Sequence record: PQ666539
Reading direction: 5' to 3' (one strand)
From: Shigella phage sb1
Length of the DNA stretch: 64,000 nucleotides
In this document: in pieces, positions 31,949 to 32,345 of the stretch
Numbering within the stretch: the stretch's first letter is position 1
Layout: the number at the start of each line of letters is the position of its first letter
Translations under genes and position numbers: made by a program
The notes under the pieces: model-generated
Seen by the model: the letters and a program-made list of their open reading frames with translations, nothing else
Databases searched by the model: none
Told to the model about the DNA's origin: nothing

Positions 31949-32345
31949 TATAAATTCTCTTTTAAATGAAAATGCAGGACTTATTGGCATTGCCTGCGCA
32001 AGCCCTTAAGGGGAACATAGGTTTTGAATATTTACCGACAGGATAACCATAAACCTCGTCAACATACCTTATAGCTCTTATCTGTTGCACACCGTTAGCT
32101 TAAAGGTTCCGGGTTCGATTTCTCGAGGATAAGATATATACTGATGGATATATAGGCCTTGAGGCGTACTCCCGATTGGCCATCACCTCGGGGTAGCATG
32201 CACTTGCCGCTATAAGAATAACATTCAAGAGGTACACCATAAAACTGCCTGGGTCTTAAAACTATAATGATTCGCAAATCATTAATCAGAAAGTTCGATG
32301 GCTCCTCGATTTTAGCTCACACTAAGGCAGTTAATCTCCAATAAA
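31949..32345 (-). other. ~400 bp ORF-free spacer between rIII and 30.9; no coherent reading frame on either strand
   Basis: all six frames broken by stops; the only listed ORF (32095..32277) is low-complexity; several short inverted repeats (e.g. AATGATT-cgca-AATCATT at 32266..32283). Confidence 0.4.

Follow-up and report, generated by a model that had tools for sequence, protein, structure and literature searches.

What fills the 397 bp that separate gene 30.9 from rIII in a T4-like phage is the question raised by positions 31949..32345 of Shigella phage sb1 (record PQ666539), within the 64,000-nt stretch of DNA that was analysed and is referred to here as the window. In the initial annotation, this region was described as a spacer of about 400 bp free of open reading frames in a tightly packed early region, and was tentatively ascribed to a structured non-coding RNA, a replication or packaging cis element, or the decayed remnant of a mobile gene. 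The spacer is delimited by the following features:

32346..32594, minus strand: rIII, 82 aa, lysis inhibition accessory protein (PHROG 1457 and annotations); upstream boundary of the spacer
31772..31948, minus strand: 30.9 homologue, 58 aa from the ATG at 31948, very basic; downstream boundary of the spacer
31747-31768, minus strand: strong terminator 3' of 30.9 (terminator scan)

The 30.9 homologue belongs to PHROG 1427, of unknown function, and owes its gene name to the T4 annotation. The spacer was found to be a mosaic, or string, of small RNA modules lying in the same sense as rIII and 30.9. Its non-coding character was confirmed, with only short and unconserved ORFs (42, 46 and 60 aa on the minus strand and 25-26 aa on the plus strand) and no Pfam or PHROGs match for any of them. 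No reading frame stayed open throughout the homologues of the spacer, every frame being broken by indels not in threes, and an intact gene at the rIII-30.9 site was found in none of the relatives examined. The impression that the spacer is less AT-rich than its surroundings was also correct, with a GC content of 0.39-0.44 in 200-bp windows against about 0.36 for the whole 64-kb window. The claim that neighbouring genes are less than 60 bp apart proved inaccurate, the gaps between rIII and 31 and between 30.9 and 30.8 being 126 and 110 bp, respectively. It had also been considered that relatives might show a short gap, this copy simply carrying many lesions. The first part held for T4, whose rIII-30.9 gap of 244 bp is shorter because an RNA cassette is precisely absent from it; the second did not, this copy not being decayed. 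Small ORFs are annotated at this site in some GenBank records as "hypothetical protein" and even as "glycogen branching enzyme".

Fold, covariation and distribution of element A

The strongest signal of the spacer was found in its central 149 nt, and not in the hairpin at 32266..32283 that the initial annotation had singled out. This central segment, element A, is a non-coding RNA that stands on its own, folds compactly and belongs to a hitherto undescribed family; it has the following parts:

32068..32216, minus strand: element A, structured RNA of ~149 nt (covariation, G·U:A·C counts, CM R1, centroid fold)
32209-32216 / 32068-32075, minus strand: closing helix P1, 8 bp (inverted repeat), which closes the four-way junction of P1, Px, P3 and P4
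32180..32185, minus strand: loop L2 at the tip of the P2 arm (RNA sequence UGAUGG); kissing-loop partner of L3
32142..32147, minus strand: loop L3 (CCAUCA on the RNA), the P3 hairpin loop; kissing-loop partner of L2
32135-32141 / 32148-32154, minus strand: P3 stem, which covaries (UAUAUA, UAUACA/UGUAUA, UAUGCA/UGCAUA, UACACA/UGUGUA)
32115..32126, minus strand: P5 hairpin, with the tetraloop GAAA or GUAA in most copies and UAAA or UAAU in two
32083..32099, minus strand: GCUAAYGGUGNGCAACA, nearly invariant single-stranded or junction segment, comprising the 3' strand of P6 and the junction into P4

The architecture consists of eight helices around a perfect four-way junction together with a 6-bp kissing loop; the P2 arm is long and bears a conserved internal loop, and P4 encloses P5, P6 and the invariant junction. 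Among 33 distinct copies aligned with the CM, 96.7% of the cells were paired and both-side changes were present in 24 of the 41 pairs (shuffles, 0/500). Similar values were obtained for 21 hand-checked copies, with 95.9% standard pair cells and both-side changes in 25 of 47 pairs (shuffles, 0/500), against 28-41% paired in slid controls. The L2-L3 contact was paired in 100% of the 21 sequences over its 6 bp, and three of its positions covaried (UGAUGG/CCAUCA, CGAUGG/CCAUCG, CUAUGG/CCAUAG and CAAUGA/UCAUUG). The P5 stem, helix 7, covaried as well (UCGA, CCGA/UCGG, CUGA/UCAG and CCA/UGG), and its tetraloop reads as GAAA or GUAA on the minus strand only. The pairs of element A held 52 G·U cells and 2 A·C cells, by which the RNA is assigned to the minus strand. 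CM R1 gave 184 bits for the copy in the window, the single-sequence centroid fold concurred with the covariation model, and an inverted-repeat scan also recovered P1 and the complementary loops 32142-47/32180-85. The single-sequence folding energy was unexceptional (z = -1.2), and about 60 unpaired nucleotides were invariant. For the central 149 nt, the structured non-coding RNA proposed at the outset thus receives strong support from covariation, from G·U pairs specific to one strand and from conservation across genera. Element A is almost certainly a minus-strand element acting at the RNA level, under strong selection on both structure and sequence, and it comes as a discrete cassette of 155 bp that a phage either has or lacks.

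Known RNAs, genes and origins were searched for a match. The recommended Rfam check was carried out: with Rfam 15, no match was obtained inside 31949-32345 at E<=10 (region 31000-33500), and none at the gathering level anywhere in the whole 64-kb window, the nearest weak matches falling on the terminator after 30.9 alone. ARAGORN found no tRNA or tmRNA gene in the window, and a T-arm look-alike on the plus strand (GGTTCGA, GGTTCGATT) was recognised from the covariation as the P5 stem with its tetraloop. Homology to T4 rnaC or rnaD was rejected, as the best match of CM R1 in the T4 tRNA region with filters off reached 5.6 bits (E = 1.7) and fell outside both. A protein-coding gene or its remnant was likewise discarded, with no conserved frame and no Pfam or PHROG match. 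A search pattern was derived from the invariant segment 32083..32099; in its strict two-part form it matched no bacterial genome, and a looser form matched 16 loci in bacterial genomes, all of them spurious (CM <=16 bits). Blastn of element A against plasmids and E. coli genomes returned nothing meaningful, and a bacterial or plasmid origin was rejected on the basis of the pattern, CM and blastn searches. Possible pairing targets of the invariant segments within the window were found only at chance level. By consensus scan, no sigma-70-type promoter was detected between rIII and element A, nor any promoter or terminator dedicated to the element.

Element A was found in 410 phage records of at least 10 genera, invariably between rIII and 30.9, as a single copy at a single locus. 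The hosts of these phages are Escherichia, Shigella, Klebsiella, Enterobacter, Citrobacter, Serratia, Yersinia and Erwinia, and the carriers include JS98, Citrobacter phage Moon, ACG-C40, NBG2 and Klebsiella phage Mineola. In IMG/VR it was present at 20 of the 46 rIII loci, with no weak or intermediate matches. T4 lacks exactly positions 32066-32220 of the window (155 bp), and RB69 holds a different 52-nt insert at the same point; the flanking genes and leaders are the same in T4, RB69 and Serratia phage X20, none of which has element A. The identity of its core to most other genera was 78-93%, where rIII and gene 31 show 65-76% and the rIII protein 61-74% across genera; only in EcS1 and fHe-Yen9-01 does the core drop to 65-69%. 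The element begins 5-131 nt after the rIII stop codon, and lies 85-180 nt from the start of 30.9. It stands on either side of module B (described below), depending on the genus, and the sequence 3' of P1 varies between genera, with no terminator adjoining the element. That element A escaped notice in T-even phages, which are among the best-studied systems, is probably due to the precise absence of the cassette from T4, the reference phage. Its covariation support is on a par with that of many accepted RNA families, it occurs in hundreds of sequenced therapeutic and environmental phages, and the spurious protein annotations that cover it in several GenBank records need correcting.

ToxI-like units at the same locus

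The rIII-30.9 spacers of many relatives contain single 36-nt units that are 82-92% identical to ToxI, the RNA antitoxin of the type III toxin-antitoxin system ToxIN, over 32-40 nt (E = 3e-6 to 1e-3 in 640 kb), always in the sense of rIII; the unit of the VR5 type is AGGUGAUUCGCUACCUUAGUGCGGCUAGAAAAUCG. The sequence used as the ToxI reference was confirmed with 100% identity on pECA1039, where it lies upstream of toxN. Arrays of toxI were found on plasmids of E. coli, Salmonella and Klebsiella, and the units of the phages match such enterobacterial plasmid arrays. In JS98, exactly one 36-nt unit is missing. In Jiaodavirus, Karamvirus and Tegunavirus, a ToxI-like unit is followed directly by element A; the two occur independently, the association being one of location only. 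RB69, which is less sensitive to ToxIN, and X20, which is sensitive, both lack element A and the ToxI-like unit.

In the window, no intact ToxI unit was detected: the toxI HMM gave nothing significant on the spacer, and BLAST found no unit. One segment is a candidate remnant:

32308..32341, minus strand: putative diverged ToxI-like remnant, by positional homology with the intact units directly after the rIII stop codon in the close relatives L046 and L044

The flanks of this segment are nearly identical to those in L046 and L044, and the unit itself is about 70% identical by eye. In comparison with ToxI, the CUA is kept, pair 10:24 shows a compensatory change, and positions 9 and 25 form a mismatch (C:G in T4). 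In ToxI, C27 and U28 are critical for ToxN binding and U9 pairs with A25 (PMC3475682). None of the natural toxI arrays matched the variant of T4 and the window, which has no plasmid counterpart. In the literature searched, coverage of which was incomplete, no account of element A or of ToxI-like units in T4-like phages was found, and both would be new relative to it. TifA, a protein, has hitherto been the sole explanation for the evasion of ToxIN by T4-like phages, a question on which the ToxI-like units bear. A part for gp30.9 as a TifA-like partner was rejected, the protein having no similarity to TifA and 30.9 also occurring in phages without element A.

Possible roles of element A

Element A would be made within a read-through transcript of rIII, since it starts 5 nt after the rIII stop codon in four lineages; the expression, ends and processing so assigned to it are putative. 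In the folded molecule, the 8-bp P1 leads into the four-way junction, two arms of which would touch through the 6-bp loop-loop contact, and a third arm carries a three-way junction, the invariant single-stranded segment and a hairpin capped mostly by a GNRA loop. Such an RNA may act as an accessory molecule that binds a conserved protein or RNA partner, and not on the neighbouring genes. Most likely it would serve in the conflict between phage and host, as an inhibitor or a decoy, given that relatives have putative mimics of the ToxI antitoxin at this same variable spot. A self-contained, protein-binding accessory RNA engaged in this conflict is favoured, tentatively, as a serious possibility. 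Counting against the conflict role, no bacterial or plasmid counterpart was found that element A could mimic.

The very high sequence conservation across genera also speaks against that role, since a defence target that evolves fast would account for it less well than a ligand pocket, a catalytic core or a core partner that is itself conserved. Element A may also be conceived, somewhat more hesitantly, as a new class of phage RNA whose fold is itself the active agent, namely an aptamer-like RNA that inhibits or soaks up an immune protein or a conserved nuclease of the host, or else a new ribozyme, a ligand sensor or an RNA that assembles with itself through its complementary loops. If counter-defence is its function, this would be RNA counter-defence not copied from a host RNA, unlike pseudo-ToxI or RNA anti-CRISPRs, and the rIII-30.9 spacer would be an "RNA anti-defence island" of T-even-type phages, missed since T4 is without the cassette. 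Should a host factor be the target of element A in trans, this would amount to a mechanism of counter-defence or host takeover that is new, and the element may be a host-range determinant relevant to phage therapy.

Other phage RNAs resemble element A in size. The packaging RNA of phi29, pRNA, carries complementary covarying loops that pair between molecules and form a ring. Like element A, it is a phage RNA of ~120-170 nt with two mutually complementary covarying loops in one molecule, and the L2-L3 pairing could be intra- or intermolecular; it differs in that no sequence or model match was obtained and in that the locus of element A lies among early accessory genes, away from the packaging genes. 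Packaging of the T4 type is not known to require an RNA. The rnaC and rnaD RNAs of T4 (species 1 and 2; 139 and 119 nt) are small stable T-even RNAs of unknown function, comparable in size with element A; they sit in the tRNA cluster, where the CM for element A found nothing, whereas element A is at rIII.

The first alternative is that element A is a cis-acting element of the rIII-30.9 mRNA, serving as a barrier to 3' exonucleases, as a processing site, or for read-through by RNA polymerase of the downstream hairpins and the 30.9 terminator. This was considered unlikely. The constant position in the transcript between rIII and 30.9, the four lineages in which the element is 5 nt from the rIII stop codon and the strong terminator 3' of 30.9 are all consistent with it, and a host RNA polymerase or RNase as partner would account for the conservation across host genera. 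On the other hand, T4, RB69 and X20 keep the flanking genes and leaders and do without element A, so the neighbouring genes are independent of it; what adjoins it and whether it precedes or follows module B vary by genus, and some 60 invariant unpaired nucleotides plus a kissing loop far exceed what an exonuclease block would need.

That element A is the aptamer of a riboswitch, sensing a signalling nucleotide or a metabolite to control 30.9, is rather improbable. Purine and lysine riboswitch aptamers are large and have loop-loop contacts. They share with element A a closing helix P1 that is variable but covaries, a junction of several helices whose unpaired nucleotides are invariant, and an L2-L3 kissing loop that covaries, so that the conserved, aptamer-like fold expected of a riboswitch is found in element A, which furthermore lies upstream of an ORF. 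The resemblance ends at the expression platform, as neither a terminator nor an RBS-sequestering helix coupled to P1 was found. Element A also gave no Rfam riboswitch match at E<=10, it is an optional cassette without which the flanking genes work, T4 expressing 30.9 from the same leader in its absence, and in Jiaodavirus module B and the ToxI-like unit are upstream of it and not downstream.

Little probability was likewise given to cutting of the rIII-30.9 transcript by element A as a new class of self-cleaving or otherwise catalytic RNA, for which the compact fold, the many invariant junction nucleotides, the tertiary contacts and the discrete, flank-independent cassette would be suitable. 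Against this, no ribozyme family of Rfam 15 matched, element A occurs once and at one locus, unlike most small self-cleaving ribozymes, and no conserved candidate cleavage site was present at the P1 borders when the flanks were compared.

Less probable still is that element A is an elaborated antitoxin mimic of the ToxI type, binding toxins of the ToxN family. Phage ToxI and pseudo-ToxI (Blower et al. 2012, PMC3475682) resemble element A in being non-coding RNAs that a phage encodes at a variable locus, they form part of a longer transcript, as is presumed for element A, and bona fide single ToxI-like units occur in the rIII-30.9 spacer of relatives, some of them abutting element A (directly 5' of it in the three genera named above). 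By eye, the words AAGUGCA-GCUA, ACCUUUAAG and GCUAA..GGUG..GC are shared, and the invariant GCUAA is like the 3' tail of ToxI with the C27/U28 critical for ToxN (PMC3475682). However, ACCUUUAAG and GCUAC are unconserved or base-paired in element A, and ToxI is a 36-nt pseudoknot in tandem repeats which ToxN cuts at AA^AU (PMC3475682), whereas element A is a non-repetitive 149-nt RNA with a four-way junction. Tandem repeats were absent, only an unrelated 11-nt one being found in 31700-32700, and the toxI HMM was blank over the spacer of the window. The pairing topology of the ToxI pseudoknot is presumably also different from that of element A. The similarity was not significant, and element A has no bacterial counterpart. 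Derivation from tandem ToxI was rejected: alignment to six tandem units with 300 dinucleotide shuffles gave z values of -1.1 to 2.6, no better than the shuffles (about 1-2.6, and negative in divergent members).

A DNA-level site (origin, recombination or packaging) or a decayed or small-protein gene is very hard to sustain, in spite of the small ORFs annotated here in some GenBank records, since the strand asymmetry of the pairing (52 G·U against 2 A·C) points to RNA, and the unconserved ORFs, the indel-broken frames, the failure of Pfam and PHROG matches and the relatives examined, none with an intact gene at the site, speak against a gene; with it, both the replication or packaging element and the decayed mobile gene of the initial annotation are left unsupported.

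Remaining modules of the spacer

Apart from element A and the putative ToxI-like remnant, the spacer of the window contains four smaller features:

31974..31997, minus strand: putative leader hairpin GCAGG...CCUGC and then AUUUUCAUUU, immediately 5' of the ribosome-binding site of 30.9 (single-sequence fold)
32003..32013, minus strand: module D, small GC hairpin CCCCUUAAGGG (inverted repeat I8)
32014..32067, minus strand: module B, hairpin with a conserved GUUGUAGGUUAUC-like loop (alignment A5 and pair counts)
32265..32284, minus strand: hairpin UAAUGAUU-UGCG-AAUCAUUA followed by AUAGUUUUAAG, weak and terminator-like (inverted repeat I6)

The hairpin AATGATT-cgca-AATCATT was found at 32266..32283 exactly as initially reported, and amounts to 8 bp when 32265/32284 is counted. 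It is a minor and separate module, common to phages of the T4, JS98, VR5 and RB69 types, with the loop variants UGCG, UGUG and UGAG and no covariation in its stem among the T4, JS98 and VR5 types. An AT-rich hairpin of 7-8 bp is on its own little beyond chance expectation, and the terminator scan gave no call at 32265-32284, where only one pair of the stem is G-C and AUAGUUUUAAG forms the tail. The region of the putative leader hairpin forms a block 96% identical with T4.

Module B was found in T4 and nearly all relatives. Support for its structure was moderate, with 80% of the cells paired and both-side changes in 8 of 12 pairs (slid controls, 31-47%), and its loop may form a pseudoknot with the downstream AACCU. 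The PeSL cassettes of T4-type phages, reportedly described by Arbiol and co-workers in 2010, are said to consist of a promoter and a simple stem-loop present in many copies per genome. Like modules B, D and E of the spacer, they are small non-coding modules shuffled between intergenic sites; element A differs from them in being single-copy and far more complex and in having no promoter-like site. Module D recurs beside rIII, element A or module B in many genera, and modules B, D and E switch position and order from one genus to another.

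The rIII-30.9 spacer and its optional core

The region belongs to a T4-like phage, with Escherichia phage vB_EcoM_NBG2 (Tequatrovirus) as its closest match (98% identity over 951 bp), and all of its genes lie on the minus strand. The gene names rIII and 30.9 given in the initial annotation were found to be correct.

Features of the region (window coordinates)
33658..34239, minus strand, cd
32721..33056, minus strand, gene 31
32346..32594, minus strand, rIII
32068..32216, minus strand, element A, an RNA of about 149 nt
32014..32067, minus strand, module B, a hairpin module
31772..31948, minus strand, 58-aa homologue of T4 30.9
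31768..31747, minus strand, strong intrinsic terminator

The 397 bp between 30.9 and rIII contain only ORFs of up to 60 aa, none of them conserved or matched in Pfam or PHROGs, in agreement with the ORF-free spacer described initially. The lower AT content estimated by eye was confirmed (GC of 0.39–0.44 against about 0.36 for the window), and the hairpin at 32266..32283 is present exactly as reported. Neighbouring genes had been placed less than 60 bp apart, but the two nearest gaps measure 110 bp and 126 bp; in T4, the gap at the rIII-30.9 site is 244 bp. Blastn searches showed the spacer to be a mosaic: the two outer thirds were common to T4 and the window, and the middle ~140 bp, absent from T4, was found in Klebsiella, Enterobacter, Kosakonia and Raoultella phages of other genera (94–96% identity), a Serratia phage (84%) and an Erwinia phage (80%). 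The 155 bp at 32066-32220 correspond to 2 bp in T4, with flanks 93–96% identical on both sides, and at this junction point RB69 carries an unrelated 52-nt insert in place of element A. The unrelated insert of ~52 nt (AUUUUGUACUAUCACGCGUCAGAAAAAGGUUAUCUGUCUAAGUCGUGGUUG) is seen at this site in RB69-/VR20-type phages (RB69, L119, ~8455-8520; loci L045 and L047, ~1545-1600). With alternative cassettes at the exact site (element A, the ~52-nt insert or, in T4, nothing), the site is an insertion hot spot.

Element A was located between rIII and 30.9 homologues in every case compared (Jiaodavirus, Kanagawavirus, Roskildevirus, Kagamiyamavirus, Tegunavirus, Serratia phage 4S, Karamvirus, Moonvirus and Marfavirus). 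Its core was present in 410 phage records, rIII being encoded by 1116. A covariance model (CM) built from 21 copies (R1, with rough E-values) detected it in 20 of 46 IMG/VR loci encoding rIII; true copies scored 126–187 bits and the other 26 loci gave no match at E<=1, with nothing in between. R1 did not match the T4 tRNA/rnaC/rnaD and rIII regions, the rIII loci of an Acinetobacter phage, an Aeromonas phage and Serratia phage X20, or toxIN plasmids. Pattern scans of large collections, which required the invariant motifs and so may have missed distant relatives, recovered element A on T4-like contigs only (20 IMG/VR and 14 metagenome contigs) and no true copy in one genome per bacterial/archaeal species, and blastn found none in plasmids and 5,426 E. 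coli genomes.

The spacer gave no Rfam 15 match even at E<=10, the whole window gave none at gathering level, and ARAGORN predicted no tRNA or tmRNA. Weak matches to Atu_C8 (E = 9e-4) and Phe_leader at 31733-31816 (minus strand) were rejected as homologous RNAs, as they come from nothing more than the strong terminator hairpin that follows 30.9 (31747-31768). No description of element A was found in the literature, within incomplete coverage, and no relative of it was found among known RNA families and folds.

Fold, strand and history of element A

The structure was derived from alignments of 10, then 21, then 33 distinct copies, first by hand, and a single-sequence centroid fold independently gave the hand-derived structure.

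Helices of element A, read along the minus strand from 32216 to 32068
P1, 8 bp in the window; sequence variable, covaries
Px, GGC/GCC; GGU/ACC in fHe-Yen9-01
P2 arm, long; nearly invariant internal loop AAGNGCAU / CUYAWG, bulged A, 2-bp P2a, loop L2
P3, hairpin with loop L3
P4, UCUUAUC/GAUAAGA; encloses P5, P6 and the invariant segment GCUAAYGGUGNGCAACA
P5, tetraloop mostly GAAA or GUAA
P6, CCG/CGG; CCA/UGG in fHe-Yen9-01

P1, Px, P3 and P4 join in a perfect four-way junction, with no unpaired nucleotide between them. Loop L2 is complementary to loop L3 along 6 nt, and the two covary (UGAUGG/CCAUCA, CGAUGG/CCAUCG, CUAUGG/CCAUAG and CAAUGA/UCAUUG), the kissing helix being 100% paired in the 21-sequence alignment, with three covarying positions. 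This pairing may be within one molecule or between molecules; within one molecule, the great length of the P2 arm relative to P3 would require the conserved internal loop to bend sharply, and the intermolecular loop pairing of phi29 pRNA is a candidate likeness. The MAFFT alignment of 21 sequences had 95.9% of cells paired, with 25 of 47 pairs changed on both sides (shuffles, 0/500; slid controls, 28–41%). The CM-fitted alignment of 33 distinct sequences, which is biased towards the model and with whose picture the MAFFT alignment agrees, had values of 96.7% and 24/41, respectively (shuffles, 0/500; slid controls, 26–42%). The sequence sets used to derive and to test the structure overlap and come from related phages, and the shuffles do not remove phylogeny, a problem that is eased by the slid controls and by the large number of independent compensatory changes. 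About 60 positions are invariant.

Across the structure, G·U wobbles occupied 52 cells and A·C only 2, numbers that would swap on the opposite strand, which identifies the transcript running in the rIII and 30.9 sense as the molecule that folds. On the minus strand, the P5 loop is GAAA or GUAA in all except two copies (UAAA and UAAU). Of the readings offered initially, the structured non-coding RNA was borne out for element A by the covariation, the kissing helix and the wobble asymmetry: it is an RNA on the minus strand with a compact multi-helix fold and a loop-loop contact, optional and self-contained. A replication or packaging DNA element was not supported, as strand-asymmetric wobble pairs are not expected of a double-stranded DNA function. 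A coding sequence or decayed gene was rejected, since indels of 1, 2 and 7 nt interrupt every reading frame, no frame is open in all aligned copies, and the ORFs are unconserved and without family match. For the latter reasons, the proteins annotated across element A in several records (e.g., MZ681930, ON720975, MZ170040, OR352951 and OK499981), named 'hypothetical protein' or '1,4-alpha-glucan (glycogen) branching enzyme, GH-13-type', look spurious.

The core in the window is 78–93% identical to that of most other genera, compared with 65–76% for rIII and gene 31 (nucleotide), and the most divergent members, EcS1 (69%) and fHe-Yen9-01 (65%), retain every helix by means of compensatory changes. 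The divergence of P1 is similar to that of the flanks, and the inner helices are conserved in both sequence and pairing, from which element A is read as old at this locus, repeatedly lost (T4, RB69 and X20) and constrained beyond pairing. Some exchange between genera is likely, given the odd similarity of 30.9 across them. The 30.9 gene (31772-31948) was 86–89% identical to that of the Jiaodavirus, Kanagawavirus and Marfavirus phages compared (L002, L003 and L011; nucleotide), with 66–76% for rIII and gene 31, which suggests either that this block was exchanged between genera or that the 30.9 sequence is unusually constrained.

Neighbouring modules and ToxI-like units

Element A starts 5–131 nt after the rIII stop codon (5 nt in four lineages, leaving no room for a promoter of its own) and ends about 85–180 nt ahead of the 30.9 start. 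A consensus scan found no flanking sigma-70-type promoter or terminator, and with the short gap the simplest reading is that element A would be co-transcribed with rIII. Module B forms a hairpin, and its conserved loop can pair with an AACCU further downstream (possible pseudoknot); its covariation support is moderate, and it occurs in T4 and almost all relatives, upstream of element A in Jiaodavirus and downstream in the window and the Erwinia phage. Further recurring pieces are a small GC hairpin (32003..32013) and the hairpin at 32265..32284. A segment of the rIII-31 spacer (32630-32677) also recurs, between element A and 30.9 in Jiaodavirus and Moonvirus (85–92% identity; Klebsiella phage Merci L002, 2423-2470; Citrobacter phage Moon L010, 1385-1432). 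The long hairpin that contains it has different closing stems (GGUAGUC/GACUACC versus GGGAGC/GCUCCC), and the segment looks like another shuffled leader cassette. Such recurring, reordered modules indicate that the intergenic regions are built from shuffled RNA-level cassettes.

The antitoxin of the abortive-infection system ToxIN is ToxI, a 36-nt repeat RNA, and a sequence close to ToxI lies directly 5' of element A in Klebsiella phage Merci. The ToxI sequence used as query was checked against published positions and plasmid pECA1039. It fits all positions named by Blower et al. 2012 (U-1, U9:A25, U16-18 and C27U28A29; PMC3475682), and three tandem units, 100% identical, lie on pECA1039 immediately upstream of the annotated ToxN/AbiQ toxin gene, and similar arrays precede toxN on plasmids of E. 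coli, Salmonella, Klebsiella, Serratia and Lelliottia. In 640 kb of collected loci, single 36-nt units 82–92% identical to ToxI (E = 3e-6 to 1e-3) occurred in many phages, including a Jiaodavirus group, VR5- and VR20-type phages and fHe-Yen9-01, only in the rIII-30.9 spacer and always in the rIII sense.

ToxI-like units in relatives (locus coordinates)
L046, 1446-1483
L044, 1452-1488
L062, 1509-1543
L002, 2641-2670, minus strand
L007, 1637-1683, minus strand

One unit type (AGGUGAUUCGCUACCUUAAGUGCGGCUAGAAAAUCG) matches the Lelliottia unit at 32/36 positions and shares the U9C/A25G compensatory pair of the phage TE pseudo-ToxI. JS98 (L043) has exactly one 36-nt unit fewer than its relatives, and RB69 likewise lacks the unit exactly. 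No report of such units in T4-like phages was found in the literature covered, which was incomplete. Over 46 IMG/VR rIII loci, a unit was present in 7 and absent from 13 with element A, and present in 3 and absent from 23 without it, which makes the two modules independent of each other at a single variable locus.

At the position of these units, immediately behind the rIII stop codon, 32308..32341 (minus strand) has the length of an intact unit in the window and T4, with near-identical flanks, ~70% identity to an intact unit and the CUA of positions 27-29 kept; the 9:25 pair is C:G in T4 and a mismatch in the window. Neither a toxI HMM nor BLAST detected it, no natural array matches it, and it is a candidate diverged remnant of a ToxI-like unit. 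An 8-nt perfect complementarity (32243-32250/32325-32332; AACTGCCT / AGGCAGTT) would close a 90-nt domain with the hairpin at 32265..32284 and part of this remnant, and is partly kept in T4 and absent in VR5-type phages. Several words appeared by eye to be shared by element A and ToxI. Homology was rejected, since alignment to tandem ToxI was no better than for shuffled sequences (worse in divergent members), the shared words are unconserved or base-paired in element A, and it contains no repeats; a functional link to ToxN is possible and unsupported.

Possible roles of element A

The reading favoured is that element A does something on its own. Given the variable locus and the antitoxin mimics in relatives, the role tentatively put forward as the likeliest is that of an accessory RNA that would bind a protein involved in the conflict between phage and host, serving as its decoy, sponge or inhibitor. 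A cis-acting element is unlikely: the flanking genes and leaders are also present without element A in T4, RB69 and X20, and its neighbours and their order differ between genera, which argues against regulation of rIII or 30.9 and for an RNA with an activity of its own. The very high sequence conservation across phages of many host genera speaks against a fast-evolving defence target and keeps alternatives alive, since it favours a conserved core factor of the host, a pocket for a ligand or a catalytic core. A riboswitch is improbable in its classical form as no expression platform is conserved, and a ribozyme is given an equally small chance.
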